A model generated the notes under the pieces. It was not told the origin of the DNA. It made no database searches and worked only from the letters and a program-made list of their open reading frames with translations. A DNA stretch of 64,000 bases from Candidatus Hodarchaeota archaeon (GTDB lineage Archaea > Asgardarchaeota > Heimdallarchaeia > Hodarchaeales > Hodarchaeaceae): positions 32,001 to 96,000 of the forward strand of contig JAEOTC010000038.1 in assembly GCA_016840035.1 (NCBI GenBank), in the 5' to 3' direction. Numbering within the stretch: the stretch's first letter is position 1; every line of letters begins with the position of its first letter. A program made the position numbers and the translations under genes. Shown piece after piece: positions 7,029-23,004 of the stretch.

Positions 7029-7210
7029 TTCCTCATCATCCTCAAGTTTAGGTTTGTAACAAGTGGGGCTTATAAAAAGGTTTGGAGGGAAGGGGAAAAA
7101 AACCAAAAAAATATGTTGACCTTCGACTTCAAATTGTGAGTATAAATGGTGAAAAAGGAATCCAATTTGGATAAAATCTGTAAAATACCAACCAAACTCC
7201 CCAAAACAGA

Positions 7211-7286
7211 AAAAATGAAAAGAGATGCCGTTTAAACGGTAATCTCAATGCTTAGCTCACGTACCAGCTCTTTGTAGTGATATCTC
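7211..7286 (-). repeat. tfb 3'-end copy 1 (YKELVRELSIEITV*, TAA) plus terminator-like tract
   Basis: Aligns with 21971-22045; last 14 codons show 6 synonymous and 1 non-synonymous change; stop TAG changed to TAA. Confidence 0.9.
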
Positions 7287-7392
7287 CCTAGTAGGGTGAG
7301 GAATACGAAAACAAGAAGGAATTGAAGACTTCGTTTCCTCCCAAAGTATTTTGAATGATTACATAACTGATTCCAGTATTATCCGCTGACTG

Positions 7393-8253
7393 GTGAATGA
7401 TATGTGTAAATACTGCTATCAACACACTCGGAAAATGTGGTATCTCGAAAAAGAATCCTTTGATATTAGATCAGGTAGATTCATGAAAATATTGCCAGGT
7501 AGATTCAGAGAACTGTGGTATAATTTTTACGCTCCTAAGTTACAATCGTTTGTTGATGGAACTACTGGTGACATTGGAGCGAATCCTGATCGTGAACCGT
7601 ACAAGGGTTTACAAAAGATGTTTTACAATTATTTCGCAAAGAACTTTTTAGGTGGTCAGGTCGTTAGCTCCCTCGATGAAATGATGCAAGTCCTTGATCA
7701 AGCAGAAGATATTTTTGTTTCATATTGTTCTTGTAAAAAAACCGCTGGCGGGGGAGAAGATTATCGATGCCTTTTTCTTAATCACAACGCCCGATTTACT
7801 AGAAAACGGCAACTCCAAGGGAAAACAAACAATGAAGGACGTTTCATCGACAAAGATGAAGCAAAAGAAGTAATTCAAGAAAAACGTCGTTTAGGTCATT
7901 ATGGCACAGTTCTGTGGGGATTACGACCGAAAGTAGATTGCATTTGTAATTGTGACCAATATTGTGCGGGTTTATACACTCCCGAAATACGATGGGGATT
8001 ACTACCCTCCTTCACTATTTCTGTAATCGTCGATTCTGATAAATGTGATTCTGATTGTACAGTATGCCTTGATCTTTGTTACCCAAAAGCCATTACAAAA
8101 AATGAGGACGGATTAGTGACTTCAATAGATAATTATCTATGTATAGGCTGTAATCTGTGTGTTGAGAATTGTCCAAATGGAGTTTATGATTCTCAACCAC
8201 GTAAGATATATTATGACGCTTCTATTGGTAAAAAACGCGTATTAGAATATTGA
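7393..8253 (+). CDS. 4Fe-4S dicluster (ferredoxin-domain) protein
   Basis: CSCKK and CICNC clusters; CDSDCTVCLDLC and CIGCNLCVENCP ferredoxin motifs. Confidence 0.8.
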   Translation: MNDMCKYCYQHTRKMWYLEKESFDIRSGRFMKILPGRFRELWYNFYAPKLQSFVDGTTGDIGANPDREPYKGLQKMFYNYFAKNFLGGQVVSSLDEMMQVLDQAEDIFVSYCSCKKTAGGGEDYRCLFLNHNARFTRKRQLQGKTNNEGRFIDKDEAKEVIQEKRRLGHYGTVLWGLRPKVDCICNCDQYCAGLYTPEIRWGLLPSFTISVIVDSDKCDSDCTVCLDLCYPKAITKNEDGLVTSIDNYLCIGCNLCVENCPNGVYDSQPRKIYYDASIGKKRVLEY

Positions 8254-8290
8254 TGAAACTATAACAGAATGAGATAAAAACAACAAGATG

Positions 8291-8378
8291 AAAAAGAAAG
8301 GAGATACCGCCTAGACGGTAATCTCAATGTTTAGCTTGCGTACGAGTTCTTTATAGCGATTTCTCACGGTTACTTCGG
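8291..8378 (-). repeat. tfb 3'-end copy 2 (EVTVRNRYKELVRKLNIEITV*) plus terminator-like tract
   Basis: 79/88 nt identical to 21971-22058; 5 synonymous codon changes and one S-to-N change. Confidence 0.95.
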
Positions 8379-8469
8379 AAAATCCGAACAGCTATGCAAG
8401 TATCTCAAGGGTAGAGAGATGAGAAGATAAAGTTTATAAGATCTGAAGACTCCTAGAAATAGGATAAGT

Positions 8470-9063
8470 ATGAAAAAAAATAACCGATGTCTTCTTCAGC
8501 TTGTCATTCTAATAGTACTTATCTTGAATCTAATGACAGGGTTAAAACTAATCCGAGGAGGAGAGATGAAAAGGGATCAACTCGTCCAAGTCGAATTATT
8601 ACTATTTCTAAAGGCTGTTCCCATGGAAGATTATCCTACAGCGGTTTTCAGTGGAATTGAAGACTATCAGGTTTGGACTGGAAATGTAACGGTCAATGGC
8701 TCAGTCGCTACAAATAATGACCTCAAAGAAGCAGTTGTGACCCTCAAAAATCGAACGTCAACATTTCTTCACACGAATTTAACGCTAACTAAAGATACGG
8801 ACTACTTAGGTCCGAAAAATCTAGCCTACTTATTCGAAGTAACACTTAATAGTAATGAATATCCAAATGGGTCGTATACATTGTTTTTTCATTTTCTAGA
8901 TACCAAAGGTGCCGGAATGATTTATCATTGGGACATCAGGATAGCTAATGCTTCAGATCATCTCTCTCCAGCAATAGGCCTCCCTCTGAGTTTCCTCACA
9001 CTGTTTTCTATTATTACCATTCGTCGAAAAGTTCCACGACTATTCAAGGAAGAGAAAAAATAA
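8470..9063 (+). CDS. Putative exported, C-terminally membrane-anchored protein
   Basis: Hydrophobic N-terminal segment, beta-rich middle with N-x-T/S sequons, C-terminal TM followed by RRK. Confidence 0.6.
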   Translation: MKKNNRCLLQLVILIVLILNLMTGLKLIRGGEMKRDQLVQVELLLFLKAVPMEDYPTAVFSGIEDYQVWTGNVTVNGSVATNNDLKEAVVTLKNRTSTFLHTNLTLTKDTDYLGPKNLAYLFEVTLNSNEYPNGSYTLFFHFLDTKGAGMIYHWDIRIANASDHLSPAIGLPLSFLTLFSIITIRRKVPRLFKEEKK

Positions 9064-9120
9064 AGGAGAGAATACCTAGACGGTTATCTCAATACTAAGC
9101 TTACGTACAAGCTCTTTATA
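9062..9120 (-). repeat. tfb 3'-end copy 3 (YKELVRKLSIEITV*)
   Basis: 9076-9120 encodes a peptide identical to the TFB C-terminus with 7 synonymous and 0 non-synonymous substitutions. Confidence 0.93.
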
Positions 9121-9244
9121 AATGGAGTTCTCAATCTTTTATTATGTACTTGCACTTCGGCATGATTTCAGTCAGTTTTGAATGAGAATCCTGAAAAGGA
9201 TATAGTGAGGAAATTTTTCAAATCACGAAATACTCCATTCTTAT

Positions 9245-9451
9245 ATGCGTGAAGGAGGGATAATTGAACATTTGTACTATTCTCCAATATATATAGGAAA
9301 TTATCCTGATGGGGACTGGAATGAATCATATGAGCTTCACGATTATATAGGGGGTTATATTATGGGTGGAATGAACCCCACATGGTATTTGCATCCTGAT
9401 ACAGAGAACAGAGTTTATAAAAATCTAGATCAATGGGATGGACCTATTTAA
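9245..9451 (+). CDS. Short hypothetical protein or gene fragment
   Basis: 68-aa ORF with protein-like composition inside a cassette; no recognised motif. Confidence 0.35.
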   Translation: MREGGIIEHLYYSPIYIGNYPDGDWNESYELHDYIGGYIMGGMNPTWYLHPDTENRVYKNLDQWDGPI

Positions 9452-9698
9452 TGATCTTTAAAAGAGAGCTCATTTAAATTTAAAAAAAGAGAATAATAAC
9501 TATAATTTGTAGGGTTAATTAACCATATGTTCACATTTCAAATACAAAATAGTTCTCGTGGAAATCGTAAAAATGTGTGATTAATGCATTATATGATAAG
9601 TATAAAAGCAAATAAAGGACTAGAAATTACTAGTTTTTTTCAGTTAACTGAAAAAAATAAGAATTCAGTAAAAAAGACTTGAATGAGCTGAAAACAAG

Positions 9699-10763
9699 AT
9701 GAAAAGGGGAAAAAGAGGATATTATCTATTATTAGTGAATCTGAGTCTGGGGTTATTACTATTACTAAGTGGATGCACGCTATTACCAACGAGTGAACCA
9801 GAGGAGATATTATCATTTGATCCAAATACTGCAACCATATATAATCCGAAAACAAACATTTCAGAGAGTTTTTATGTCAGGAACATGAACAGGAGTGGTA
9901 GTACTTTCTACCATGAAGATCAAATGAAAATTATAGTCGGAGTAAGAGATTCTAAAGGACTTCCAGGAGTAGCTGTGAATTTACATTTGAGAGTTATCTT
10001 TGACTGGTATGGAAATACAGATATTGTAAATTTAACAGAAGAATTCGGCCTCAAAATGACCACTAATCAATCAGGAGCGGTGTGTTTGATTTGTACATAT
10101 AATCAATATACATGGCCTCAAGGGTCTTATACCACTGAAGGAATACTTGAGATTTCTTCTTCTCAGCTAAATAATACAAGAGGATCCTCTGGAAAGCTAG
10201 ATTTTACCTATTATCATAAAGAAATCACACGAAATTCAACAGTAGAGGGGGGGATAGCAGTTATAAATGCTTTAGAAAAAATGAATCTGATAGAAGAAGC
10301 CAGTTTACTCGGTGGGGAAGACAACCTATACCCAAACTGGAATAGTCAATATTATGAATACTACGATATTAATCAAGTAATATTAAACCAATCTACCATT
10401 GAATTCTATACTAATTATCGCCAGCAACCAAGAGTTGAAGTCTACTATGTAGCATGGACAATCCTGTACGAAGAAACGAATTTAACATACAATATCATCA
10501 GAAATAACTGGAGTACATATATTGGGGAAGATTATGGATCTTTACTGATCAGTGATGAATATCTTGGAGAGAATTGGCTAATAACTGAACCAATCACAAA
10601 AGTAAATCTTACAACAGGTTGGTTAGTCATGCAAATTTTATATATTGATTCATTCCAAGAACCACTAAACGGTTGGACAAGAGTAGTTTATCAAGTTAGC
10701 CTTGTAACCATAGATATGCAACTTCGATGGTTATTATCTAGTTCCTTTACAGCAATAGCCTAA
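9699..10763 (+). CDS. Putative lipoprotein / exported protein
   Basis: Basic N-terminus, hydrophobic core and LLSGC lipobox; many N-glycosylation sequons. Confidence 0.7.
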   Translation: MKRGKRGYYLLLVNLSLGLLLLLSGCTLLPTSEPEEILSFDPNTATIYNPKTNISESFYVRNMNRSGSTFYHEDQMKIIVGVRDSKGLPGVAVNLHLRVIFDWYGNTDIVNLTEEFGLKMTTNQSGAVCLICTYNQYTWPQGSYTTEGILEISSSQLNNTRGSSGKLDFTYYHKEITRNSTVEGGIAVINALEKMNLIEEASLLGGEDNLYPNWNSQYYEYYDINQVILNQSTIEFYTNYRQQPRVEVYYVAWTILYEETNLTYNIIRNNWSTYIGEDYGSLLISDEYLGENWLITEPITKVNLTTGWLVMQILYIDSFQEPLNGWTRVVYQVSLVTIDMQLRWLLSSSFTAIA

Positions 10764-10945
10764 AAATTCGGAATTAACTGAAGATACTTGAACTAAACAT
10801 TAATATGCGTGTTAACCGAGAGGACTGAAAAATTCCACATTTCTAGTAAGAAATCTTTTTTTTCCTTTATAGACTCGGGAGAATTGTTGAAACTGAAGAA
10901 TGAAACCTTGGATATGTGATTTAATCCCTTCCACCCAAAACGAGA

Positions 10946-11031
10946 AAAAAGAAAGGAAATCCCGTCTAGGCGGTAATTTCGACACTAAGTTTGCGTACGA
11001 GCTCTTTGTAGCGATTTCACAAAGTAAGTTC
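10946..11031 (-). repeat. tfb 3'-end copy 4 (NRYKELVRKLSVEITA*) plus terminator-like tract
   Basis: Aligns with 21971-22056; 4 synonymous and 2 conservative changes in the last 16 codons; further upstream it is decayed (in-frame TGA). Confidence 0.92.
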
Positions 11032-11170
11032 ATGTTTAGAATAAGAATACAACAATTAAGATATTTAATTGTTGAAAATCAAATCCTTCATTAATTCACT
11101 ATCGAATAGAAAATCACAAATAGGAGAGAGTAGATGTGAAATACGCTTCCTTTTGAGGGATGAGATAAAC

Positions 11171-12142
11171 ATGAATGATATAGAATTGCTGCTAGTTTTT
11201 GGTATTACAATACTCATTTCGTCAGGAATTACCTTTTTTATCCTCAGGTATTTCTTTGCTACACGACTGAAAGGTATAGAAAAATCATCTGATACAATCT
11301 CTAAAATATCTGAGGGAATGGTTCAACAATCTAATAGCTTCATTGATCTAATGAAAAACAGTCTTAATACGCTACAGACGGACGTAATGGGACAATTAAA
11401 AGAATTACGGGAAATGTCTCGGGATCTTCAGACTACTCAAAAAGATACTCAGAGCTCTTTCGAAAAATTTGTCAGTTTAGTACGTATGCGTCCCCAAACA
11501 AAAGGCGAAGTAGGAGAAGGTATCGTACGTTGGGTATTAAGTTCATTACCAGCAAATTCATGGAAAGAGCAAGTAACAATCTCCGGAGGACGGGTAGATT
11601 TTATAGTATATTTACCACCAGATCAAGAAAAAGTTCTCATTGATTCAAAATTTAGCTTTCCAACAGAATTATTAGAATCCGATAATCTAGTTGCTGCTGA
11701 CCAACAAACCATCAACAAAATTAATCGAGGGATAATCAAGAGAAGTAAAGAACTCGAGAAATATTTAGTCCCAGAGAATACAAATATCGGTTTTTTACTC
11801 ATGTACATTCCAGATATACTATTTTCCTACCTATCTGATACCACATTTAAAGAATTGACAGGGAAGAAAATTATTCCAGTTAATGTGTCAGGTCTTTTAT
11901 CAACTTTATTGATAATTTCCCGTCAAATTCAAGTATTTCGAATTGGCGAGGCTATTTCGCGTTTAGAATCAATCAAAACAACTTTCGACAGTGAAATTGA
12001 TGCTATTCAGAAGATAACTAAAACAAGTAAAGGTCAACTTCAGAAAGCACTCACAAACGTCGAAAAAATCGATGTTCAACTTGATTCCACTCGACGGAAG
12101 ATTTTTAGAGAGTTTGGATTAATTGAAGAAGAGAGTACTTAG
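11171..12142 (+). CDS. RmuC-family DNA recombination protein (TM, coiled coil, PD-(D/E)xK nuclease)
   Basis: N-terminal TM, coiled coil, KGEVGE...RVDFIVYLP...IDSKF and LMYIP motifs; ATG at 11171 chosen. Confidence 0.8.
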   Translation: MNDIELLLVFGITILISSGITFFILRYFFATRLKGIEKSSDTISKISEGMVQQSNSFIDLMKNSLNTLQTDVMGQLKELREMSRDLQTTQKDTQSSFEKFVSLVRMRPQTKGEVGEGIVRWVLSSLPANSWKEQVTISGGRVDFIVYLPPDQEKVLIDSKFSFPTELLESDNLVAADQQTINKINRGIIKRSKELEKYLVPENTNIGFLLMYIPDILFSYLSDTTFKELTGKKIIPVNVSGLLSTLLIISRQIQVFRIGEAISRLESIKTTFDSEIDAIQKITKTSKGQLQKALTNVEKIDVQLDSTRRKIFREFGLIEEEST

Positions 12143-12159
12143 GATTAAAGAGAAGGCTG

Positions 12160-12957
12160 GTGAATTTAATGAGTAATTTGAAAGATAAATCAAAAATTTG
12201 TCCATATTATCAAAAACCATGCTTATTAGAGAAGTGTCTTGCCTACAGTGGTGAGACTTGCCTAATTATTCCTTTGGGGAGATTAGAAAGGGAAACTACT
12301 ACAAAAGTGCCTGTAATCCTCAAGACTAAATCCATAAAAGAATTAGCAGAAAAACTTGCTGATTATTATTTGGAAAAATATCCCGATGGAGAAAATTATC
12401 GATATACTGACACTTCCCTTTTCTGGAGCAATAGAATTGGAGTGAAAGAAATCTATAACCTCCCTTCGGACATCCAAGAAAAGATTCAAGATGTGGAAAG
12501 ACTTGCAGAGGACATAACAGAAGATAGGAAAATCCCCGAAGAATTAAAGAGCCAAAAACCTGAGAAGATAGCAGAAAACATGGTCAAATGGGCAGAAAAA
12601 AATTTTGATATCACTAGATATGTATATTTTAGAAAATACTGGGGATCCAAAGGATTGCCCGAATCTTATTATTTTTCAGATAGATATCGGCCGAAAGCTG
12701 AAAAATGTGAGTTACTGGCTGAACAAAAATTAGAGGAAATTCGTGAAAAGAGAAAGAAGGAGAAAAAAGAGAAAGAGAAACAGCAAGCATTAGCTGAAAT
12801 CGATAATATCATTAAATGGTTAAAAGAGAAACGGTTGGTGAAGCTCTCAAAAGCGAATTTAAAGCTTTATTTTTCTGAAATAGGTATGAAGGTCTCTCCC
12901 ACTAATCGTCAGAATGTATACATAAGGGTAAATGAAATTTTAAAACAAGAAAAATAG
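12160..12957 (+). CDS. Hypothetical protein (Cys-rich N-terminus, two similar helical repeats)
   Basis: 265-aa ORF; CPYYQKPC...C...C; internally similar segments ending in FW/YW. Confidence 0.65.
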   Translation: MNLMSNLKDKSKICPYYQKPCLLEKCLAYSGETCLIIPLGRLERETTTKVPVILKTKSIKELAEKLADYYLEKYPDGENYRYTDTSLFWSNRIGVKEIYNLPSDIQEKIQDVERLAEDITEDRKIPEELKSQKPEKIAENMVKWAEKNFDITRYVYFRKYWGSKGLPESYYFSDRYRPKAEKCELLAEQKLEEIREKRKKEKKEKEKQQALAEIDNIIKWLKEKRLVKLSKANLKLYFSEIGMKVSPTNRQNVYIRVNEILKQEK

Positions 12958-13013
12958 GGGGCTAAGTGATAAAAGTGATAGACCTAGAAATTTATAGCGA
13001 TGGAGGGTATTAA

Positions 13014-13874
13014 TTGAGGAAAACTCGAAATAAGAGAAGTACAAGTTTACTATTAATTTATATTGCCATCAATCTTGGTTTAATTCTCCCAATGGGAGTA
13101 TCAAACGCACTAACCACGAATAGAACACAGAATGAATATACACGAACATTTACTTGTAATAAAGACGCGTATGTAGACTCTTCGAACCCAACTTCAAACT
13201 ATGCTAATGCAGATTTAGAGGTTTCAAACTCATCATATCGAGCAAGACGTTCTTATCTATCCTTCGAAATTCAAGACCTACCTTCAGATGCTGATATAAA
13301 AGAGGTAACATTCGGATTAAGCGTGAAATTCTTGCCTTATGATGACCATACCGTTCCATTAGATATTTGGAAAACAACTTACTTTGATGAAGATATCGTT
13401 ACTTGGGAAAATTGTCCTCAAAGAACTGTTCTCATGATACAAGTCGATATTGCTGAAAATAAACGCTGGAGCATTCCACTGGAAAACCATGGCATTACTG
13501 GAAATTTAAATCTCTATATTTGCTTATCCACCGATCTCGACAACTCTGCACCCATTACATTCGATTCTAGAGATGATATGTGGAATCCACCAAGAGTAGC
13601 AGTTACTTTCGAAGCATTATCCATCGATGAAAGTCCAAATGGAACAGTAGACTTAGTGATATTCCTAATTTTACTTGGTCCAATTGGAGGAATTGGATTA
13701 GCAATATTTCTAATGGTGAGAAAATCAAATAAGAGAAAAACAAGTTTTAGTATTGTATATCAAGAACCGAGAATTTCTCAAAAATCCGTAACTATAGACC
13801 AATTTTGTGGCCAATGCGGTGCTCCTCTGGATTCGACGAATGTTTTCTGTCCGTCCTGTGGGAAGAAACAGTGA
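13014..13874 (+). CDS. DNRLRE/CBM96-like exported domain with TM and cytoplasmic zinc ribbon
   Basis: Signal peptide, DAYVDSSNPTSNY...RRSYLSF...VTWEN...FDSRD pattern, TM, FCGQCG...FCPSCG. Confidence 0.7.
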   Translation: MRKTRNKRSTSLLLIYIAINLGLILPMGVSNALTTNRTQNEYTRTFTCNKDAYVDSSNPTSNYANADLEVSNSSYRARRSYLSFEIQDLPSDADIKEVTFGLSVKFLPYDDHTVPLDIWKTTYFDEDIVTWENCPQRTVLMIQVDIAENKRWSIPLENHGITGNLNLYICLSTDLDNSAPITFDSRDDMWNPPRVAVTFEALSIDESPNGTVDLVIFLILLGPIGGIGLAIFLMVRKSNKRKTSFSIVYQEPRISQKSVTIDQFCGQCGAPLDSTNVFCPSCGKKQ

Positions 13875-13914
13875 GGATATACTTCTTCGTGAGAAGTTAA
13901 AACTGGGTGAAATT

Positions 13915-15036
13915 TTGAATAGAACTAATCTCATGAAACTATTTCAGCTCGAGGATAACCAGGAAATTTTTGATTTAGCCCTTACTCCAAAATCGTGTGG
14001 TGGAGGTGACGAATTCAAACTTTTAGCCCTTTATGGGGATAAAATCATTGACTTAGCTCTGATCATTGATTTTTCAAATCAAGGATTCACAAATACGGGA
14101 GTAATCTCACCTGCTATTGATAGCTTTCATAATGAAGATGCTCTCAACGCACTAGGAAGATATCTAGAAATCGATCATTTGATGAATCCACTTGATAAAT
14201 CCAAACCGATCTCAGATGGTGATGTGAAAGAAGGAGTAGAAGCTCTTATAGGAGCAGCATATCAAAAACATGGATTAACCACATGTATCAAAATTGTTCA
14301 ACGTCTATACGAACAATCGGAATCTTTTTCTACAAAACCGGGAGAGGAAAAAGCTACTATCCTGACGGAAAACTTGGTAGGGATGTTACAAGAGTGGTTA
14401 GCAAGCCAAGGCCTTGGAATACCTGTTTATGAAGGGATACGAGTTGGAGGAACTAATGACAATCCATTATGGAGATGTCAAGTTTCATTTGAATATCATG
14501 GAGAAAAAGTCAAGGAGAAAAGTGATATTTTTTCCAATAAAAGACTCGCTAAGAAGAATGCAGCCCAGAAAGCATTGGTTGCATTAGGAATAAGGAAAGA
14601 TAATGTAAGCAGAGTTTTTGGGTCGATTCAGGAGGTGAAAATTCCTGAAACAGCAACTCAATCTCTCCAAGAACGAGAAATTCTCTTTACCAAAGGAGGG
14701 AGGGGAGGGCATTTTATCACAGGAGAGATACAACTAACAACTCAAACGGGTGAAACTGTCTTAGAATGGGCAGAAAAGAAGATAAAAAAGAATCCTTATG
14801 GAAGCTTGATTCTCCTAAGTGCACGTTTAGAGGAAATAAGTGGATCTTCTTGGTCAACTTCCTTGGAGGATCAGGAGCTAATTCTACTAAATATTGTTAT
14901 TGAAGACATGCCCTATTTTGAAATAGGAAAAGGAAAGTCAAAAACAAAAGCTAGAAAAGATGCTGCGCAAAAAATAATAAGATCATCTAATCTTATCAAA
15001 TGGATTGCTCAAAAATATTCAACCATACTAATCTGA
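13915..15036 (+). CDS. Ribonuclease III-family protein with dsRNA-binding domains
   Basis: LALYGDKII and VEALIGAAY RNase III motifs; dsRBD LQEWLASQG...KRLAKKNAAQKAL; second dsRBD-like GKGKSKTKARKDAAQK; TTG start after GGTGA. Confidence 0.8.
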   Translation: MNRTNLMKLFQLEDNQEIFDLALTPKSCGGGDEFKLLALYGDKIIDLALIIDFSNQGFTNTGVISPAIDSFHNEDALNALGRYLEIDHLMNPLDKSKPISDGDVKEGVEALIGAAYQKHGLTTCIKIVQRLYEQSESFSTKPGEEKATILTENLVGMLQEWLASQGLGIPVYEGIRVGGTNDNPLWRCQVSFEYHGEKVKEKSDIFSNKRLAKKNAAQKALVALGIRKDNVSRVFGSIQEVKIPETATQSLQEREILFTKGGRGGHFITGEIQLTTQTGETVLEWAEKKIKKNPYGSLILLSARLEEISGSSWSTSLEDQELILLNIVIEDMPYFEIGKGKSKTKARKDAAQKIIRSSNLIKWIAQKYSTILI

Positions 15037-15050
15037 AAATGTAAAAATTA

Positions 15051-15114
15051 AGGAGATACCATTTGATTGGTAATTTTCATACTAAACTTATGTATGAGCC
15101 CTTTGTAGCGATTT
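15051..15114 (-). repeat. tfb 3'-end copy 5, heavily decayed (NRYKGLIHKFSMKITNQ)
   Basis: GGAGATACC...GGTAATTT...ACTAAACTT...CTTTGTAGCGATTT is colinear with 21979-22042 without gaps; stop lost. Confidence 0.8.
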
Positions 15115-15374
15115 ACCAAGTAACTCCAATCACTGTTACTCGTTTAAGTCAGAAGGGTACAATATTTTCTTCCTGTGTGGAGAAACAATGGAAGATAAAA
15201 AAGTAAATAGCAATTAGCAAAAAAGGGAGAATTCTGTTGAGAATGTGGAAATTATGTTTTAAGATGGAGTTGAAGTAATCGCAAACAGAGAAGACCAGTT
15301 TAAGGGAGAAATATATTGATCCGTTTCCCGTACTCTTAGCATTAAGCATTCTACTAATTGTTATATATATAATA

Positions 15375-16115
15375 ATGCTAATTAATCCTTCAATTTATGA
15401 TCTACTAGAAATGAACAGATCAAATCCCTTTAGTATATTAACTAGTCTATTAATCCATGATCTAGATAATTCAGCACATTTAAGCGTGAATTTGGGGGCA
15501 TTATGGATTTTTGGTTATATTGTAAATATCCAGACAAATCGATTTCGAATGCTAATAACTTTCTTCGTATGTGGTGTATTAGCAAATATATCTACGGTGA
15601 TTTTTTCAGATTTAATAAACCACCTATTTTCTACTACATTCACAAATTGGGCTGTTTCTTCTAGACATTGGATCGGAGAGAATTTACGTGTTGTTCCATC
15701 ACCAAACGGAGGAGGAGCTTCAGACGGATTGATGGGGCTAGGAGGATTTGCTCTCGCTTTAGCTATTGACTTTTTAATTATTAATTTACATGAAGCTTAT
15801 AGAATCAGCCGTAATTCAACCAATAAATACCTAATAATACTAATTGATCGTCTGAATCAGTCAATTGTGGATACCTGTGTAAATTGTGTTGGGATTCTAG
15901 GAATTTTAGTTCTTTGGGCAGGATTAATTATGGATCTTGAAATGTTTTATTATGTTTTAACTTTTAATTACGCAGCAGCAAACGGAGAACTGTTATCTTA
16001 CCCGACATCAGACGGGCATCCGTTACTAGCCCATGCTTTTGGAGGATTGATAGGATTTATCATCGGGATCTATTATACTCGGTTCTTTCAAAAGGGGATA
16101 AGAAACTCCAATTGA
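15375..16115 (+). CDS. Rhomboid-family intramembrane serine protease
   Basis: HLSVN, GASDG (catalytic Ser), AHAFGGLIG (catalytic His); first TM lies upstream, behind an in-frame TAA at 15276. Confidence 0.8.
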   Translation: MLINPSIYDLLEMNRSNPFSILTSLLIHDLDNSAHLSVNLGALWIFGYIVNIQTNRFRMLITFFVCGVLANISTVIFSDLINHLFSTTFTNWAVSSRHWIGENLRVVPSPNGGGASDGLMGLGGFALALAIDFLIINLHEAYRISRNSTNKYLIILIDRLNQSIVDTCVNCVGILGILVLWAGLIMDLEMFYYVLTFNYAAANGELLSYPTSDGHPLLAHAFGGLIGFIIGIYYTRFFQKGIRNSN

Positions 16116-16185
16116 CATGAGAGTGAAATACAAACAAGAAAAAGATGAGGGGAATACTTTACTTTGGAAAGACTTCCAATCAAAC

Positions 16186-18042
16186 TCAGAAGGATTGGAA
16201 TCGGTTCCTTAAGACTGCACGAAGGTTTCTGAAAGAGCGAAACAGCTGCAAATTCGGAAGATGATGTTGATTGAACATGGCACGATTATCAAGAATTAAC
16301 CCTGTGGCTTGATCTACTTCAGAGCGAATAGCACGCCCCAAACACTGGCGGACCTGTGTGAAGAGATAGCGTTCTATTAACGTCCATTTAACAAAATGGA
16401 GATGACGATAACGGTTAAAATAGAGTCTATAAAGCAAATTGTACACCGGAGTGGGTGCTGGAAAGGGTAAGCCTATTAAAATCACCATTCGTACACGACT
16501 TCGGCCAGTTTGAGGATCTCGAACTTCGACTCCTTCACTAAACTTCCCGCCATAAACTGCAAGCACCACACTTGGGTCCCCATTCATTAATTCAGAGAGG
16601 AATGTAATCTGACCCTTTCTAGGTTCACGATAGAGAGACAGTTTTTCATTCAAATGCTCTTCTAAAAGTGGAAATAAGTCATCAAGAAACTCATAGGACG
16701 GGACAAAAACCCAGGTATGATCAGGAATTTCAAGTGCGACCTCCTTCACAGTTTTTGCACACCAACGCAGGAACTTCTTTGTACGATTACGATGAGAACT
16801 ACTCACCTGCGGATGAATAAATGCAGCCACAAGTAATTGCTGAATACGCGATTTAGGAGTAGGAACGTGGTGCAAATGGTACATATTCCACGGTTTTTTT
16901 TTTAATCCATAATAATGCGAGTAATATTTGAGATATTGAAAAGTGGCAGAAAACAGCACTGTCCGGGAGAACTGCCGATTCACATATTCAAAGATTTTCG
17001 ATGGATAGGGATCGAGTTGAACTAATCCTTCCTCCGTGTTCACCCAATATCGGCCTTGACGCTCAACAAAAGAGCGCACAGCCAGTAAAGCTTCTAGATC
17101 GAGAGGAGAAAGAGAATATCGAATACCTTTCTGATGAAGGAACGAATCGATTTGAGCTAGATAAGAACGATCAAGAGTTGGGGGACGTTTAACATACCCA
17201 TACTTTCGCTGGCATAGATTTTGCAGAATTTGCACAACAGGAAAAGCTCCGATTGACTCAACCAACGAAAGTTGTTTCCGAGTGACTGTAGCCTCTATTG
17301 TTGGCCCAAAATTGTGAGCTTCATCAATAATAGCGAATCTATGACTCCAACGAAAACCATAATCATGCGCTTTCCAGGTGAATCGAGACAGGGAGCGCTG
17401 GAGAGAGTGAGATTCCAAATATCCCTGCGGGAGTAATATAATATTAGCCTGAGGAAGCAAACGTCGGATGACTTGAGCAGGACAGCCATAGGGAGTGAGA
17501 AGCTCCTGAAAACCGGCAAATGATGAAGGACAGTGCTGGAGGGATATTTGAGGAAGAATCTCTCTTAGAGAGGATAACGGTAAAAAACGAGTTTTTTTCT
17601 TTCGAGGACAATGAAAACAGTCATTTTCAGGAGGTAAAGGACAGAGATCTTTGCTAGCGATCAAAGGAAGTAAGGTTAACTTGTCTGCCGGAGGGTTAGA
17701 GTAATATTCTTTCAGAGTTTTGAGAAACACTGATCTAAGTTGTGCTTTGGTTTTAGAAAAACACCAGAGTTGATATTCACCGGTCTTCATCAGATCCCAG
17801 AAGGCAGAAAACGCGGTGACGGATTTACCAAACCCAGTGTAGGCATTAATCGCAATTCGGGGATAAGCAGCAATTAAAGCTAGGACCTGTGCCTGACCAC
17901 GACGAAAGGAGGGAAAAGGAAAATGCTGGCGAATTTCAGGGGGCAATTCTTCATCCTTGAAAGACGAATGAGCCGCACCTGCTTTAAAAGCATCTGAATA
18001 ATAGATAAAAATTCCCTCAAGAAGGTTTTCCCGTATACACAT
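16186..18042 (-). CDS. Rad3/XPD/DinG-family SF2 helicase
   Basis: Q-motif FRRGQ, AYTGFGKS, Cys cluster, IDEAHN, FSAT, FVPSY, GKFSEGV, GLPFP, QCLGRAIRS; true start may lie inside the ORF. Confidence 0.85.
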   Translation of the reverse strand: MCIRENLLEGIFIYYSDAFKAGAAHSSFKDEELPPEIRQHFPFPSFRRGQAQVLALIAAYPRIAINAYTGFGKSVTAFSAFWDLMKTGEYQLWCFSKTKAQLRSVFLKTLKEYYSNPPADKLTLLPLIASKDLCPLPPENDCFHCPRKKKTRFLPLSSLREILPQISLQHCPSSFAGFQELLTPYGCPAQVIRRLLPQANIILLPQGYLESHSLQRSLSRFTWKAHDYGFRWSHRFAIIDEAHNFGPTIEATVTRKQLSLVESIGAFPVVQILQNLCQRKYGYVKRPPTLDRSYLAQIDSFLHQKGIRYSLSPLDLEALLAVRSFVERQGRYWVNTEEGLVQLDPYPSKIFEYVNRQFSRTVLFSATFQYLKYYSHYYGLKKKPWNMYHLHHVPTPKSRIQQLLVAAFIHPQVSSSHRNRTKKFLRWCAKTVKEVALEIPDHTWVFVPSYEFLDDLFPLLEEHLNEKLSLYREPRKGQITFLSELMNGDPSVVLAVYGGKFSEGVEVRDPQTGRSRVRMVILIGLPFPAPTPVYNLLYRLYFNRYRHLHFVKWTLIERYLFTQVRQCLGRAIRSEVDQATGLILDNRAMFNQHHLPNLQLFRSFRNLRAVLRNRFQSF

Positions 18043-18817
18043 GAGGAGTCAAAGGTTTGGAAGCTTTTTTCTTCCTCTTTTTTGACCGAAATTCTCGAAA
18101 ATAACCCCTGAATTCTACCACTTGATCATAGATCTTGTGTGTCCACGAATTTTGCCAGAAACGAATCCGATGTTCTTTGTGTTTTAATTTCGTAATATAA
18201 CAGAAATAGGGAAAGGCCTCCCAGGGGTGGGTTTGAAGCAACTTATCGAGATCCCCACGAAGAGTAACGAGAAAACCCATCTGTTTAAAGGAAGCGAGGG
18301 TAGCAAAACCCCTCAATCCACTCGGGGGAAGAAAACAGGTATCATATCCGTCAAAAACTAAAGCTGTAAGCATAGGATGTCTAAGAATAGGTTTGAAAAA
18401 TTCACGGTCGAAACTCTTGGCAAATAAAGTGTGTTTATCAATTCGACTTAGATAAGAGGTGGGAAGTTGCTTTTGAGATCGGAAATTAAGGACACGAAGA
18501 ATACGTTGAACCTGATAATCCTCATTGAAATCGTAATACAAAATTTGCCATGGTTTTGGACTGCTCAAGAGGCAGGAGGCAACGAGTTGAGCAAGAAACA
18601 GGCTTTTTCCAGCGTTTTCCGGACCAGCAATGATAATGGGCCATTGCCAGAACCAGCCACCTCGCCATGTTCGATCCAAAGACTGTAAGTACGTAGGGAT
18701 CGGTTTACGTGGAGGAAGGGAACTATCGCACGGAACAGCATGTTTAATAACTTGGGATAACAAATCATCTAAAGACTCGGAGTCATTCCTAGATGAGAGA
18801 GGTTTTTGAGAAACCAA
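18017..18817 (-). CDS. Divergent RecA/RadB (Rad51-paralogue-like) P-loop ATPase
   Basis: IPTYLQSLDRTWRGG, Walker A GPENAGKS, YYDFNE, Walker B LVFDG. Confidence 0.6.
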   Translation of the reverse strand: MVSQKPLSSRNDSESLDDLLSQVIKHAVPCDSSLPPRKPIPTYLQSLDRTWRGGWFWQWPIIIAGPENAGKSLFLAQLVASCLLSSPKPWQILYYDFNEDYQVQRILRVLNFRSQKQLPTSYLSRIDKHTLFAKSFDREFFKPILRHPMLTALVFDGYDTCFLPPSGLRGFATLASFKQMGFLVTLRGDLDKLLQTHPWEAFPYFCYITKLKHKEHRIRFWQNSWTHKIYDQVVEFRGYFREFRSKKRKKKASKPLTPHVYTGKPS

Positions 18818-19732
18818 AAATATACACCTTCCATTTACTAGATATCGGGTTGTCCCCTTTTATATCTGAAAAGATCTAGAAAATTGGAAGAGGACCCAAG
18901 CTCAAGTACTTTTGAATATATAAGGGAGGGGCAGAATCTAGTACGGTTCTCTCTTTAGTACCATTCAGGCAGCTATAGTAGGTGAGAATTGTGAATGACC
19001 ACTCACAATGATCTTCACATACGTAGCGAAAAAGTGCTAGTCGCTAGCATTTGCCTTGCACTTGCTTAAAGAGGCAGGTGGATAAACAAACACGGTTGAA
19101 AACCGATGTTGGCAAGTGAAACACGAGAAAGTAAGAGGAAAACTATCCAGTTATGGCAAACTGGAAAATTTAGTCATATTTTGTTCGTGAATGAACTGGC
19201 CCTGTTTCCTCAGAAGAATCAGGTAGATAAGGTTCAAGAATCAGATCAATTAAACCTGGTTCAAGGTACGGATACGAAAACACAAAGAACGCGGAATCCG
19301 CAAAGACAAACAATAACCCCAATCCAATACCCACCAGTATACCCTCTTCAACTGGGAAATACTGGCCTTGTCGACTCTCCAAGGTGGATCGAGTCACACG
19401 ACAAGCAATTCTTTACGAAGGAAACGAAAACCCCACACGAAGGGAAAATGGAACAATACCCAAAAGAACAACACCAGCGTTTAATAACAAAACAACCATA
19501 TTCGACTTACACTCACGGTCAGGAAGAGACGCGGAAGTGTGTGTCAGTCAAGCGGAGTGTATCCACTCAAAACCATATCCAACTACCACGGGAAAGCATC
19601 CCTCCCAAGGGTGCTAGGCCTCAGAAGAGATGTGTCGTAAGACAGGTCTCTTCTGAGGATCCCACGAATATGGGCCCTTGTCATGGTGACATGACCAGGG
19701 TAGGTAGATACTCTACCCAAGGTGAACTGACG

Positions 19733-21214
19733 ATGTCACAAACCAACCCTCTTCCTACGGAAGGAGGGGCGCAGGCCCCACTTCCTGACCGTGTCATCAC
19801 GGGGCAAAACGCCCCATGGCCGGTCGTCCCCGAAGAGTACACCTTCCAGGAGGTGTCTCTTTGGGAGTTTACCAATCTCTATGTCCTGTTGGGCAAAGAC
19901 GATTGGATTACCCTGTCAACATTGTTGCAGGGAATCAATCTCTCGGCAATAAGTCGAGAGATTGGGATAGGCGTATCCGTCCTATCCAACATTCGAGAAT
20001 CCCCCGATCAAACGATCGCGGTGGCGAATCTCGAACATCTCTGCCACTATGCAGGGATGGATCTTTCACAGGTCGAGCGAAACGCGCGAGCGGTTCGTTT
20101 TTCTAAACGAGGTGACCTGGAGTACCTCAAATTTCCATTCGTCATGGATATTTATGCCTGGCGAGTCCTTTGTCACATTGCTGGAGATGGTAATGTGCAT
20201 TTTCGCAAGTATCCTGATCTCCGGTGGATTCAACTCCCCGAGCATCAGGATCCAATGCGGACTCTTCTATCCAATCTGAGTCGTGATCCAACAATTGATT
20301 ACGAACGGATGATATATCCTAAGACATTAGCTTATGCTATCTTGGGAACCATTCGAGGGATCACATTCCGTGACCTTCGGACCCCTTCATTCATACAATT
20401 TGTACTTGATTTACCCAGTCGCTATCGTGATTGGAAAGTACAATTCCTTGCCGCTTTCATCGTAGATGATGGATGTATTGGTGAGGACATATCTATTTCT
20501 CAGAAGGATGAACGAGTCCTTCGCCTCATCATGCAACTATGTGATCAGTTGGGATATGATCATTCCCCGCTATATCCAAGTAAGCGTGATGGAGTAAATA
20601 ACTTTCAGTTACGTCAGGAAGGAATTCAAGCCTTCTTATATGATGTAGCGCCCCTTTATGCACGTGATCCACTTCTAGGTCTCTGGCATAAGCATACACA
20701 ACTCTTAACTGTTGCTAGTTCTTTTTCTTCAGAAAGAAAACTAGATCAAAAGTTATCTGTTCATGTGTGCACCACTATCCTTCAGATTTTGGAGGATGGA
20801 ACTATCTATTCCACGGATGAACTGCGTGTTCATCCAGCTCTTCAAGTTTATCTTGAAGGGTACCCATCCTATGTTTTAAACAGAAGATTGGGAATTCTCC
20901 ATCGTTCTATGAATCTCATTCATGAGGACATCAAGAACAATGGAACCTCTTACCGGCCTAAACGCTGGTATGTTCCTCGTTGTACTACTTCAGAACACTT
21001 GATTCAAGTGTTTCATGCGAAGTACAACAATCGTGCTCATCCACAATCCTACAAACGTAGGAACATTACTTCTCAGATGGTAGAGGACGCCATTGAGGAA
21101 CTTAGTGCGCAGGGGGTCAAACCTAGTGCACTAAATGTCTCTCGTTTCATAGGGTGCTCGAAAAAGCAGCTCTATAAACGAAAAGACTTACGGGTGTACT
21201 TCATTGGTAAATGA
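19733..21214 (+). CDS. HTH-containing double-motif LAGLIDADG endonuclease-like protein
   Basis: Xre-like HTH (LSAISREIGIGVSVLSNI), LAGLIDADG-like helices VLCHIAGDGNV and FLAAFIVDDGCI, C-terminal HTH (ALNVSRFIGCSKKQLY); ATG at 19733 after GGTGA, ORF open from 19106. Confidence 0.7.
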   Translation: MSQTNPLPTEGGAQAPLPDRVITGQNAPWPVVPEEYTFQEVSLWEFTNLYVLLGKDDWITLSTLLQGINLSAISREIGIGVSVLSNIRESPDQTIAVANLEHLCHYAGMDLSQVERNARAVRFSKRGDLEYLKFPFVMDIYAWRVLCHIAGDGNVHFRKYPDLRWIQLPEHQDPMRTLLSNLSRDPTIDYERMIYPKTLAYAILGTIRGITFRDLRTPSFIQFVLDLPSRYRDWKVQFLAAFIVDDGCIGEDISISQKDERVLRLIMQLCDQLGYDHSPLYPSKRDGVNNFQLRQEGIQAFLYDVAPLYARDPLLGLWHKHTQLLTVASSFSSERKLDQKLSVHVCTTILQILEDGTIYSTDELRVHPALQVYLEGYPSYVLNRRLGILHRSMNLIHEDIKNNGTSYRPKRWYVPRCTTSEHLIQVFHAKYNNRAHPQSYKRRNITSQMVEDAIEELSAQGVKPSALNVSRFIGCSKKQLYKRKDLRVYFIGK

Positions 21215-21250
21215 AGTCACTCCCATTCCCTTCTCTTTTTTTTTCATAAC

Positions 21251-21838
21251 TCAAACTTGATACGGAAGACTAGTTTCATCAAGTTTTACGATCTCATTTC
21301 CACTAATTGACCATGAGAACCTCTCACATGCTTCTTTGAAAACAACATCTGTTACTAGAAAATCCAGAATTCCTGAATCTTTACTAGAATCAAGGATTTT
21401 AACTTTTTTCCTTCGGGTCCACTCACGAAGTATTTTGATATCCTCAGTTAACTCCATAAGTTTTTGGAGAATCTCATCAAGAGGACGACATACATCAATT
21501 GCATATTTAAACGAGATGTAAAAGTGAATTGGTGTGCGAAACAAAGAGACTGGAGATTCTTGAGTAAAATGGTTTTTAATGGAATTTTCCACAAATCTCG
21601 CATCTTGAAGAGAGAGGGGGTTTTTTAGAGATCGAGATCCGTCATTATTCTTTTTGATTTGCACAATTACTTCTTGAACGAAGTCCTGGTTATTTATTGA
21701 AGGAAATCCATCAAAAATTAGTCTTTTACTTGTAAAATCAGTATAGTTTATTTGTGTGTATCTATCCTTGATTGCAAGAGGTGTATCTGAATAATTTTGA
21801 TTTTTAATCTCATTAGGGTTTTGTTCATCTTCTTCCAC
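21251..21838 (-). CDS. Hypothetical protein
   Basis: 195-aa ORF, GTG start preceded by GGAGGT. Confidence 0.6.
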   Translation of the reverse strand: MEEDEQNPNEIKNQNYSDTPLAIKDRYTQINYTDFTSKRLIFDGFPSINNQDFVQEVIVQIKKNNDGSRSLKNPLSLQDARFVENSIKNHFTQESPVSLFRTPIHFYISFKYAIDVCRPLDEILQKLMELTEDIKILREWTRRKKVKILDSSKDSGILDFLVTDVVFKEACERFSWSISGNEIVKLDETSLPYQV

Positions 21839-21990
21839 ATATTTACCTCCTTAGAGTCAATAAACGTGAAGGATTTTTAGAAACCCAAGTTCATTAGATT
21901 GTTAAATCCTAACAAAAAAGAAGAACATAATGAAATTAAGAAAAAAAGAATCCAAGCAATTATTATAATAAAAAAGAAAGGAGATCCCGT

Positions 21991-23004
21991 CTAGACGGTA
22001 ATCTCGATACTTAGCTTGCGCACGAGCTCTTTGTAGCGATTTCTCACGGTAACTTCGGTAACGTGAGCGACCTCTGATATTTCCCGCTGTGTCCGTCGTT
22101 CTCCGTTGATTATCCCGCTGATATAGATTGCTGCGGCTGCTAGGCCGGTTGGGTCTTTTCCTGCTGTCAATCCTCCGGCTTTTGCGCGTTTTAGGATTTC
22201 TGCGGCTTTTCGTTGACAGACTCCTGATAATCGTAATTCTGTCCCAAACCGTACCAGATAATCTATGGGGCTTGCGAGGGGGATATTCAGGTATAATTCC
22301 CTGAGTAATAAGCGGTAACATCTGCCCAGTTCTTTTTTTGTGATTCGTGATTCTTTTGCGATCTCATCGAGTGTTCTGGGTACCCGGCGTACGCGTGCGG
22401 ATGCATAGATGGTTGCTGCGACCATCGCTTCTATGGAGCGTCCTCGTACTAAGCGTTTTTCTATGGCTTTTCGATAGATTATTGCTGAGGTTTCTTTTAC
22501 ATTGCGTGGTATTCCGAGTTGTGAGGCTAATCGATCCATTTCTGACATGGCGAATGCCAGATTTCTATCCATTGAGCTATGGACTCTTGTTCGTATTTGC
22601 CATTTTCGTAATCGATAGATTTGTGCTCGTCGTGAGGCTGTGAGTTTGTTGCCAAACGTATCTCGGTTTTCATATCCTATAATTGTTGATAAGCCTTTAT
22701 CATGTACTGAAAATGTGCTAGGTGATCCTACACGACTGCGTTTATCGCGTTCTTCGCTATTGAACGCACGCCATTCGGGTCCTTCATCTATTAATCGTGT
22801 TTCCAGTACGTAACCACATTTTTCACAGATTAGTTCGCCTCGATTTTCGTCGGCGACGATATCTGTGGATCCACAGTTTTTACATTCGAGGATTTCTTCC
22901 TCATCATCTACCTGGCCTTTTTTCTGTGGTTTTGCTTTTGCTTCTTTCATAAGTGCCATTCCTGAGCGTTCCTTCTCAAACTTGTGATTGCCTGGTCGGG
23001 GCAT
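21991..23004 (-). CDS. tfb: Transcription initiation factor IIB (TFB)
   Basis: Zn ribbon CKNC...CEKC, B-reader IDEGPEWRAF...RSRVG, two cyclin repeats, HTH EVTVRNRYKEL. Confidence 0.98.
   Translation of the reverse strand: MPRPGNHKFEKERSGMALMKEAKAKPQKKGQVDDEEEILECKNCGSTDIVADENRGELICEKCGYVLETRLIDEGPEWRAFNSEERDKRSRVGSPSTFSVHDKGLSTIIGYENRDTFGNKLTASRRAQIYRLRKWQIRTRVHSSMDRNLAFAMSEMDRLASQLGIPRNVKETSAIIYRKAIEKRLVRGRSIEAMVAATIYASARVRRVPRTLDEIAKESRITKKELGRCYRLLLRELYLNIPLASPIDYLVRFGTELRLSGVCQRKAAEILKRAKAGGLTAGKDPTGLAAAAIYISGIINGERRTQREISEVAHVTEVTVRNRYKELVRKLSIEITV

Follow-up and report, generated by a model that had tools for sequence, protein, structure and literature searches.

The 3' end of a gene can be replaced by an incoming element, as is known for phage 21 and e14 at icd and for tandem islands at tRNA and tmRNA genes. 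All these elements carry a gene for a tyrosine integrase, and their recombination takes place at a precise core. In integrons, also those reported from Archaea, small cassettes, often of one gene and in one orientation, pile up beside a fixed gene. The hybrid atp6 gene of Allomyces, reportedly described by Paquin et al. in 1994, is said to be an insertion of another kind, in which a free-standing homing endonuclease gene comes with a duplicated host-gene end. Insertions of free-standing homing endonucleases with host-gene C-terminal duplication have been described in fungal mitochondria, in the cob and atp6 genes of Endoconidiophora resinifera (PMC6279837). Free-standing LAGLIDADG genes are also found in the glycosylation islands of Haloferax, where an endonuclease break was proposed to move the islands by gene conversion; no duplicated target-gene ends or stacked cassettes were described for these cases (PMC5867893).

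In one genus of the Hodarchaeales, the region 3' of tfb is a hotspot of gene accretion, and the enzyme behind it is most likely a free-standing LAGLIDADG homing endonuclease encoded convergently to tfb. The window is a stretch of 64,000 nt from Candidatus Hodarchaeota archaeon (Hodarchaeales; GCA_016840035.1, JAEOTC010000038.1, positions 32,001 to 96,000), whose assembly (G000) has a size of 4.3 Mb. As in the fungal mitochondrial insertions, a LAGLIDADG (there also GIY-YIG) ORF lies between the intact gene and a stranded C-terminal copy, the functional gene end comes from the inserted unit, and degenerate endonuclease ORFs are common. However, the tfb site is chromosomal, belongs to a transcription-factor gene of an Asgard archaeon, and stacks up to five or more layers with kilobases of unrelated cargo. 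Like the elements at icd and tRNA genes, each unit brings a mainly synonymously differing 3' end, displaces the old one and stacks in tandem, but the array has no integrase and its inner ends are ragged. Small, often single-gene cassettes that gather in one orientation at a single site beside a fixed gene are shared with integrons, whereas IntI, attI and an attC family are lacking and the repeats are pieces of the host gene. A free-standing endonuclease beside variable DNA is common to the Haloferax islands and to the intronless homing of phage T4 Seg enzymes; in contrast to Haloferax, the orphan ends, the empty site and the endonuclease remnants at tfb document repeated events at one gene. 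New here are fam2 as a homing endonuclease tied to tfb, its remnants, the gene-end duplications beside its paralogues, the homology limit at -72, and the lack of an integrase on every array contig checked.

The target gene tfb (21991..23004, minus strand) encodes a TFIIB homologue of 337 aa (Pfam TFIIB 4.8e-43, Zn_Ribbon_TF 7.4e-20), and its last 42 aa are 100% identical across eight congeners. A repeat search and an nhmmer profile detected exactly six same-strand copies of its 3' end, one functional and five orphan (E-values 1e-19 to 1e-28 in a search of all 4.3 Mb of the genome). All of the direct copies in the original prediction were thus found, with the spacings that it gave (1079, 765, 1890, 4097 and 6928 nt), and the profile revealed no copy elsewhere in the assembly. 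A relaxed profile search between 3500 and 7300 found no more decayed orphan beyond the most distal one. The functional end, R0 (21967..22063, minus strand, 100.7 bits), consists of the last ~72 nt of tfb, the stop codon, the palindrome CCGTCTAGACGG and a T-tract.

The orphans all lie on the minus strand. R1 (15039..15138, peptide VNRYKGLIHKFSMKITNQ) is the most decayed copy, with 69% identity to R0, a 1-nt deletion and no in-register stop; at 15063, where the original prediction placed a stop codon, the codon in register is CAA. R2 (10941..11036) encodes NRYKELVRKLSVEITA with a stop at either end. In R3 (9051..9147, peptide YKELVRKLSIEITV and stop) the homology starts at about -44, all seven differences within the homologous part are synonymous, and the nearest functional allele is that of G002. 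R4 (8286..8389, peptide RNRYKELVRKLNIEITV and stop) is the best preserved orphan and shares 91% identity with the functional allele of G014. The distal orphan R5 (7208..7309, peptide RYHYKELVRELSIEITV and stop) has had its stop changed to TAA, for which a second change in the palindrome compensates.

Four window orphans together showed 21 synonymous and 16 non-synonymous nucleotide differences, against an expectation of 23% synonymous changes (p = 9e-6). In other genomes, many orphans encode the exact TFB C-terminal peptide at 78-94% nucleotide identity. This retention of the peptide under mostly synonymous change indicates that the orphans are former functional coding ends of tfb. The homology has a fixed outer limit at -72 nt from the stop, which no orphan out of 34 exceeds, and the individual limits cluster between -72 and -62. 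The palindrome that spans the stop codon covaries between species (CCGTCTAGACGG, CCGTTTAAACGG, CAATTTAAATTG) and, within the set of genomes sampled, was restricted to the array-bearing genus.

The copies could instead be locally duplicated functional elements, such as terminators reused by the cargo, or an assembly artefact. Cargo genes do end near the copies, each of which has a T-tract and a hairpin-like palindrome. However, the T-tract is on the tfb strand, opposite the convergent cargo genes, and the divergence is of the coding type. The mis-assembly considered in the original prediction is unlikely because independent Logan contigs (low depth of ~5x, three marine-sediment runs of a single study) bridge five of the six copies, at 7.2, 8.3, 10.9, 15.0 and 22.0 kb, with 100% identity. 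The empty site and the variable arrays of congeners also speak against this explanation, which is largely refuted and was considered extremely improbable. Four joints in the Logan contigs were rejected as evidence of excision; their sides are 21-25 nt long and do not lie on repeat pairs. Loose Logan ends at 22022 represent a different TFB C-terminus, of another organism or a paralogue.

The intervals between the copies form five cassettes, and Pfam confirmed most of the cargo identities read earlier from the sequence. Cassette 1, next to tfb, contains fam6 (21251..21838, minus strand, 195 aa), the endonuclease gene fam2 (19106..21214, plus strand), a RecA-like AAA ATPase gene (18017..18817, minus strand), a DinG/XPD-like helicase gene (16186..18042, minus strand; PADLOC typeIV_DinG 1.2e-44) and, at its distal end, a rhomboid-family gene (15375..16115, plus strand; Pfam Rhomboid 4.5e-5) that is missing from the counterpart in G020. 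In L017, L032 and L031, too, the endonuclease occurs with a similar pair of a small protein and a helicase (Helicase_C_2/DEAD_2). Cassette 2 (11069..15036, plus strand) encodes RmuC, a 265-aa hypothetical protein, a Zn-ribbon protein and an RNase III/dsRBD protein. Cassette 3 encodes a 354-aa protein without family match (9699..10763, plus strand). Cassette 4 carries fam18 (8470..9063, plus strand, 197 aa), which is 64.5% identical in nucleotides to L017 7854-8349 and has a homologous single-gene cassette in G020. Cassette 5 encodes a 4Fe-4S dicluster protein (7393..8253, plus strand; Pfam Fer4_7, Fer4). As predicted, the four distal cassettes have all eight of their genes on the plus strand, in convergent orientation to tfb, and the distance from gene end to next copy is 0-178 nt. 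PADLOC detected no known defence system; its sole match was the DinG-type helicase. The distal flank comprises a Zn-ribbon membrane protein gene (6654..7106), an M20 peptidase gene (5016..6479) and fam3 (3780..4748), all on the minus strand.

fam3 is the first gene of a conserved block, and it lies directly 3' of tfb in G002. This genome therefore presents the empty site, with fam3-fam5-fam4-fam7-fam8-fam9 following tfb directly. In the window, G014, G020 and G004, one to five cassettes lie between tfb and the conserved downstream genes, which begin with fam3 except in G020 (fam5-fam4). Across congeners, the arrays range from one to at least five cassettes and differ in cargo, which includes helicase, RmuC, P-type ATPase, beta-lactamase-fold proteins, PIN toxins and Piwi. 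The variable cassette number and content before the same block thus agree with what had been expected of relatives. Together with the coding-type orphans and the empty site, they uphold the claim that successive units carrying a tfb 3' end and cargo were inserted, each leaving the older end behind. Strict accretion at the proximal side did not hold fully, because the degree of orphan decay is out of step with position in the array: R1, beside the endonuclease cassette, has decayed most and R4 least.

The fam2 protein (702 aa) has HTH-rich flanks, and its N-terminus is disordered. The motif residues G360-D361-G362 and D454-D455 (GDG and DDG motifs), taken as the acidic ends of two LAGLIDADG helices, are invariant in 20 homologues, eight of which are matched by Pfam LAGLIDADG_3 (best E 5.9e-6). 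The core was modelled by AF2 at pLDDT 85-95, and in a Foldseek search against the PDB all of the top 50 matches were LAGLIDADG enzymes, with I-DmoI at TM 0.52-0.60 (normalised by target); a profile search against PDB sequences gave no match. From these motifs and this model, fam2 is predicted to be a LAGLIDADG homing endonuclease of the free-standing, double-motif type, with the alpha-beta-beta-alpha-beta-beta-alpha double-domain fold and a likeness to I-DmoI. The core dN/dS of 0.11-0.17 indicates that fam2 is under purifying selection, with which a domesticated host function would also be compatible.

The original prediction had counted the LAGLIDADG gene as mere cargo. Instead, fam2 is the sole site-specific DNA enzyme systematically linked to the site. 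Its long form adjoins the tfb stop in nine of nine contexts (the window, L016, L017, L020, L029 and L031-L034), in which the genes on the other side of tfb vary. fam2 matches were obtained in 9 of 21 genomes of the genus, the window's own not counted, and in 0 of 19 outside it. Five of the positive genomes have the long form or remnants at tfb, three have a short paralogue elsewhere, and one has a copy at another gene. In G001, G008, G014 and G021, the functional tfb end is followed after 50-200 nt by a C-terminal remnant of fam2; such remnants also follow orphans, twice in G001 and in G013. Both presence/absence polymorphism and decayed copies, the pattern of a homing cycle, are therefore present. 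Paralogues at two other loci serve as independent replicates. In G002, G008 and G015, a duplication of 55-109 nt from the 5' end of the neighbouring gene flanks the short paralogue, and in G000 the corresponding locus (contig C108) is empty. The paralogue in G003 is flanked by a duplicated 16-codon gene start. As to immunity recoding near -72, no consistent difference was found between endonuclease-bearing and endonuclease-free functional tfb alleles. In G001, the repeat unit of ~250 nt includes the last ~30 endonuclease codons. All fam2 remnants of this genome end at the same codon and were therefore copied within the repeat, not independently decayed. This copying is compatible with recombination without fresh endonuclease invasion.

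The integron-like mechanism of the original prediction, or an island-like one, supposes that a site-specific recombinase acts on an att-like site in the tfb tail and that the units bring a replacement tail. The enzyme would be encoded elsewhere or belong to an unrecognised family, with fam6 as a candidate. The fixed outer limit at -72, the covarying stop-codon palindrome of the array-bearing genus, and the small single-gene cassettes in one orientation would suit such an enzyme. fam6 lies between tfb and the endonuclease gene wherever it is present, with homologues in L017, L015, L020, L032, L033 and L029, and it has no known fold or function: it has no Pfam or PADLOC match, its sole match in a set of 5.8 billion proteins is itself, and its AF2 model (mean pLDDT 43) is too poor for use. 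A recombinase acting in trans could also be unassembled, because every genome compared is a MAG with a completeness of 70-99%. However, no tyrosine recombinase was found on the array contigs of G000, G001, G004, G015, G017 and G020. The PF00589 matches in the window's own genome are on other contigs (C174, C244), and four congeners (G001, G004, G015 and G017) have one Xer-like gene per MAG, off the array contig. The search for serine recombinases in the own genome yielded a single resolvase fragment on another contig, no SSV-type integrase was found, and the 25 Pfam families listed for 94 array ORFs include no recombinase. The inner ends of the copies are ragged, from -72 to -26, rather unlike a single core, and no tfb-end copy lies on another contig as a possible free element. 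No attC-type inverted repeats bound the cassettes, whose boundaries are tfb coding-end copies with the 12-nt palindrome at the stop. The integron-like mechanism is accordingly not supported, and a recombinase is considered quite improbable. A XerA-based route like that of IMEX elements was also considered and rejected, as was insertion of the casposon type, as no dif-like site, Cas1 or short target-site duplication was found.

Homologous recombination alone might also build and shuffle the array, with the endonuclease as a passenger or the source of the first duplication. Circles would loop out between repeats and re-enter any tfb-end copy, of their own or a different cell, by a single, Campbell-type crossover. 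Consistent with this, most cassettes have no endonuclease gene (it is missing from four of the five window cassettes and from the whole arrays of G001 and G004), the G001 repeat unit was copied three times with a fixed remnant, orphan decay is out of order, and the fam18 and fam6+PIN cassettes differ in rank between genomes. However, the first bracketing of new cargo by tfb ends is left unexplained, as are the -72 limit, the nine-of-nine linkage of the endonuclease and the gene-end duplications beside its paralogues elsewhere. Moreover, the ~5x-depth contigs contain no circle or deletion joint. Recombination alone is therefore regarded as unlikely.

The probable explanation is that the endonuclease initiates replacement of the tfb end and that donor DNA is captured in the process. 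For this model we infer the cut site, the repair route and one mode of origin for cassettes with and without an endonuclease gene. The endonuclease is predicted to cut the conserved HTH-coding stretch of tfb, ~72-80 nt before the stop. The tfb-side end would be repaired from the donor allele, importing the donor tfb tail with the DNA behind it, namely the endonuclease gene, fam6 and cargo. The far side, with little or no homology, would be joined at or just inside the broken end, and the resident tail from the cut onward would therefore persist as an orphan. Repeated rounds would stack the cassettes. The endonuclease gene would decay afterwards, as in the usual life cycle of homing endonuclease genes, and recombination between direct repeats could delete, shuffle or re-insert cassettes. 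A broader proposal, which we put forward tentatively and hold somewhat less likely than not to be correct, is that an integron-like platform for gene capture on an Asgard chromosome is run by a homing endonuclease instead of an integrase, and that the same enzyme family acts at other genes. Repeated breaks in the tfb tail would then force the import of a replacement tail with foreign DNA, and accessory and defence genes would be stacked behind the essential tfb gene.

Few known archaea are more closely related to eukaryotes than the Hodarchaeales, and the route by which foreign genes enter their large, gene-rich genomes is at issue. The tfb locus is a defined and recurrent entry point for accessory genes that has no integrase. 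The genes entering there include metal pumps, hydrolases, toxin genes, helicases and, in a relative, Argonaute. If the endonuclease drives the array, homing endonucleases would be builders of genomic islands, beyond their role as selfish passengers of introns and inteins. The predicted target in tfb would then also offer a natural and testable landing pad for Asgard genetics.

The tfb gene (21991..23004, minus strand) encodes a 337-aa protein with TFIIB repeats and a Zn ribbon (Pfam). It ends in a unit of ~95 nt made up of ~72 nt of terminal coding sequence, the stop codon, a stop-spanning palindrome (CCGTCTAGACGG) and a T-tract. Six same-strand copies of this unit were detected in the window by a repeat search and an nhmmer profile. 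These were the functional end R0 (21967-22063) and, numbered outward from tfb, the orphan ends R1 (15039-15138), R2 (10941-11036), R3 (9051-9147), R4 (8286-8389) and R5 (7208-7309). The originally predicted coordinates and spacings were correct, except that the stop claimed at 15063 is CAA in register. The self-search proposed with them, performed by BLASTN and profile on the whole assembly (4.3 Mb, 293 contigs), found no further tfb-end copy, and the copies are confined to the array. Five of the six copies were bridged at 100% identity by Logan contigs (three marine-sediment runs, one study). Therefore, the array is unlikely to be an assembly artefact, and the mis-assembly considered in the original prediction was not borne out. 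The genome (G000) contains at least three further TFB paralogues (C112, C2, C229; 53-59% identical over the C-terminal 42 aa), and orphan ends were absent at these.

The palindrome (21985-21999 in the window, and in each orphan; L014, L015 and L017 in relatives) covaries between species, with the variants CCGTCTAGACGG, CCGTTTAAACGG, ACTGTGTAAGCAGT and CAATTTAAATTG. It was absent from tfb of eight genomes examined outside the genus and may serve as a terminator hairpin or be recognised by a protein.

The organism is assigned to Candidatus Hodarchaeales by the names that its homologues carry. When the last 42 TFB residues were searched against six-frame translations, orphan ends among the matches listed were confined to the genus of the window. 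Fifteen loci were retrieved, and repeats and ORF families were mapped on each. As had been anticipated, the number and content of cassettes, the cargo-gene blocks between successive tfb ends, varied. G002 displayed an empty site, with tfb, ~210 nt and then the block fam3-fam5-fam4-fam7-fam8-fam9. The window contains five cassettes and two further genes before a G002-type block from fam3. G014 contains one cassette and G020 two, the first matching window cassette 1 and the second the 197-aa cassette of the window; G004 contains three, and G001 at least five with different cargo in each. Pfam searches over 94 array ORFs showed ordinary accessory functions, including beta-helix surface proteins, transporters (MFS and P-type ATPase), enzymes such as helicases, esterases and an aldehyde dehydrogenase, ArsR regulators, PIN toxins, a beta-lactamase-fold protein and an Arf GTPase.

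The C-terminal peptide ...YKELVRKLSIEITV* is still encoded by four of the five window orphans. Compared to the functional end, these four showed 21 synonymous and 16 non-synonymous nucleotide differences in the last 17 codons, a count that takes in degraded boundary codons (synonymous share expected by chance, 23%; binomial p = 9e-6). This substitution pattern marks the orphans as gene ends that were once in use. All seven differences in the homologous part of R3 were synonymous, and its nearest match was the functional allele of G002; R4 was nearest to that of G014. Many orphans of relatives encode the 17-residue peptide unchanged, at 78-94% nucleotide identity. Furthermore, the lineage-specific ending LNIEITI is common to orphans of G001 and of G017, and close kin therefore seem to account for most exchange.

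The putative driver is fam2, a 702-aa ORF (19106..21214, plus strand) assigned to the LAGLIDADG endonucleases by motifs, Pfam and fold match. Its homologues (24 found) share the invariant motifs LCHIxGDGN and LAAFIVDDGS, and Pfam LAGLIDADG_3 matched 8 of 20 family members. The AF2 model showed a disordered N-terminus followed by a confident core (residues 245-700, pLDDT 85-95). All of the top 50 PDB fold matches were LAGLIDADG enzymes, including I-DmoI (TM 0.52-0.60 normalised by target), PI-SceI and PI-PfuI. With a dN/dS of 0.11-0.17 versus closer homologues, the core is under purifying selection.

In all nine contexts recovered (window, L016, L017, L020, L029, L031, L032, L033 and L034), the long form of fam2 faced the tfb stop convergently at a distance of 70-800 nt, often with a fam6-like gene in between, and gene content on the opposite flank of tfb varied across these contigs. 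Orphan ends were also present beyond the endonuclease cassette in L032 and L033. The genome survey, with the genome of the window set aside, matched the family in 9 of 21 members of the genus and in none of 19 genomes from outside it. When six-frame translations were searched with a profile, C-terminal fam2 remnants (profile positions ~604-636) were detected. They lay 50-200 nt behind the functional tfb end in G001, G008, G014 and G021; others followed orphan ends, two of them in G001 and one in G013. The G001 repeat unit (~250 nt) joins the last ~30 endonuclease codons to the tfb tail and a hairpin terminator. Since the G001 remnants share one end-point, they were copied within the repeat unit and did not decay separately.

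The 195-aa fam6 ORF (21251-21838, minus strand) had no detectable relatives outside these loci. In most loci it lay directly behind a tfb-end copy in tfb orientation; in L029 a fam6-like domain lay beyond the endonuclease gene. The window endonuclease cassette also encodes a RecA-like AAA ATPase and a DinG/XPD-like helicase (16186-18817; PADLOC typeIV_DinG, 1e-44), a pair that may act in defence or assist recombination. A similar pair of small protein and helicase accompanies the endonuclease in L017 (5104-7751), L032 and L031. In L029 (3700-5136), the endonuclease cassette behind tfb includes a helicase and a gene for a Piwi-domain protein (prokaryotic Argonaute).

When 34 orphans, each with 400 nt upstream, were aligned to functional tfb genes, homology limits ranged from -72 to -26 (counted back from the end of the tfb stop codon) and clustered at -72 to -62. 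None of the 34 reached past -72, and since conservation of tfb is just as high upstream of that point, any longer copy would have shown up. This limit suggests that a site-specific event took place within the codons for ...TEVTVRNRY and that variable erosion came after it.

Endonuclease-initiated tail replacement with stacking is the most likely mechanism. fam2 would cut tfb near -72 to -80, the predicted site. The tfb-body end would take up a donor tail and downstream DNA by copying, and the distal end, lacking homology, would be joined at or inside the break, stranding the resident tail. Cassettes may then stack through rounds of invasion and endonuclease decay, and repeat-repeat recombination may reshuffle them. 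A fam6+PIN module now occupies third place in the G004 array, after two cassettes without an endonuclease gene. It is related to the cassette of G014, which combines an endonuclease remnant with the same PIN gene, and the arrangement is consistent with proximal addition. Window cassette 1 is 70-78% identical in nucleotides to that of G020, compared to 85.6% for tfb and 80% for the downstream block; the greater divergence of the cassette could mean either that the endonuclease module moved horizontally or that it is old.

R1, adjoining the endonuclease cassette, is the most decayed orphan (15 non-synonymous and no synonymous differences, a 1-nt deletion, stop lost). Orphans farther from tfb are better preserved, R4 being the least decayed, and this out-of-order decay does not fit simple proximal accretion plus neutral decay. 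Most cassettes lack an endonuclease gene, and no immunity recoding near -72 was visible among the functional tfb ends compared between endonuclease-bearing and endonuclease-free genomes. Because of these caveats and the shared G001 end-point, two rivals keep some weight. Shuffling of cassettes by recombination alone is improbable. An unseen recombinase is less probable still. The original prediction saw no tyrosine or serine recombinase in the window, and the genome search placed both tyrosine recombinases of G000 on other contigs. Besides these two genes, the search for an integrase acting in trans that it proposed gave one resolvase fragment elsewhere than the array; no SSV-type integrase was found in G000. 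G001, G004, G015 and G017 each have one Xer-like gene on a non-array contig, and none of the three tyrosine recombinases of G020 lies on array contigs.

The proposed tail replacement has known parallels. In fungal mitochondria, C-terminal duplications of cob and atp6 carry LAGLIDADG or GIY-YIG ORFs between the copies (PMC6279837), the same arrangement as at tfb; the tfb array differs in its stacking and rich cargo. Endonuclease-initiated island transfer was proposed for Haloferax glycosylation islands with free-standing LAGLIDADG genes (PMC5867893). Two reports on Asgard mobile elements (PMC8813620, PMC11529989) deal with viruses, with elements that are integrase-based and with one endonuclease element that is rRNA-adjacent; neither describes a tfb-located element. 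Literature searches for arrays of the tfb type found none, and a stacked, cargo-rich array at tfb appears to be a new version of the arrangement known from mitochondria and Haloferax.

The fam2 family also occurs at other genes. Short paralogues (409-431 aa) in G002 (C96; L035 7877-9824), G008 (C52; L036 8115-9993) and G015 (C411; L037 194-2204) have an LPG-synthase-like gene on one side and a membrane-protein gene on the other. A 55-109 nt direct repeat of the membrane-protein gene 5' end (ATG and ~35 codons) brackets each of them. In the empty site of G000 (C108:3949-6356), the two genes are adjacent without endonuclease or duplication. A 493-aa homologue in G003 (C128; L038 7360-9571), ~48% identical to window fam2 and not beside tfb, is bracketed by a 49-nt direct repeat overlapping the first 16 codons of a downstream 423-aa gene, which would be a third target. 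Together with the tfb ends, these repeats therefore tie the fam2 family repeatedly to a duplicated end of a neighbouring gene, at three different targets.
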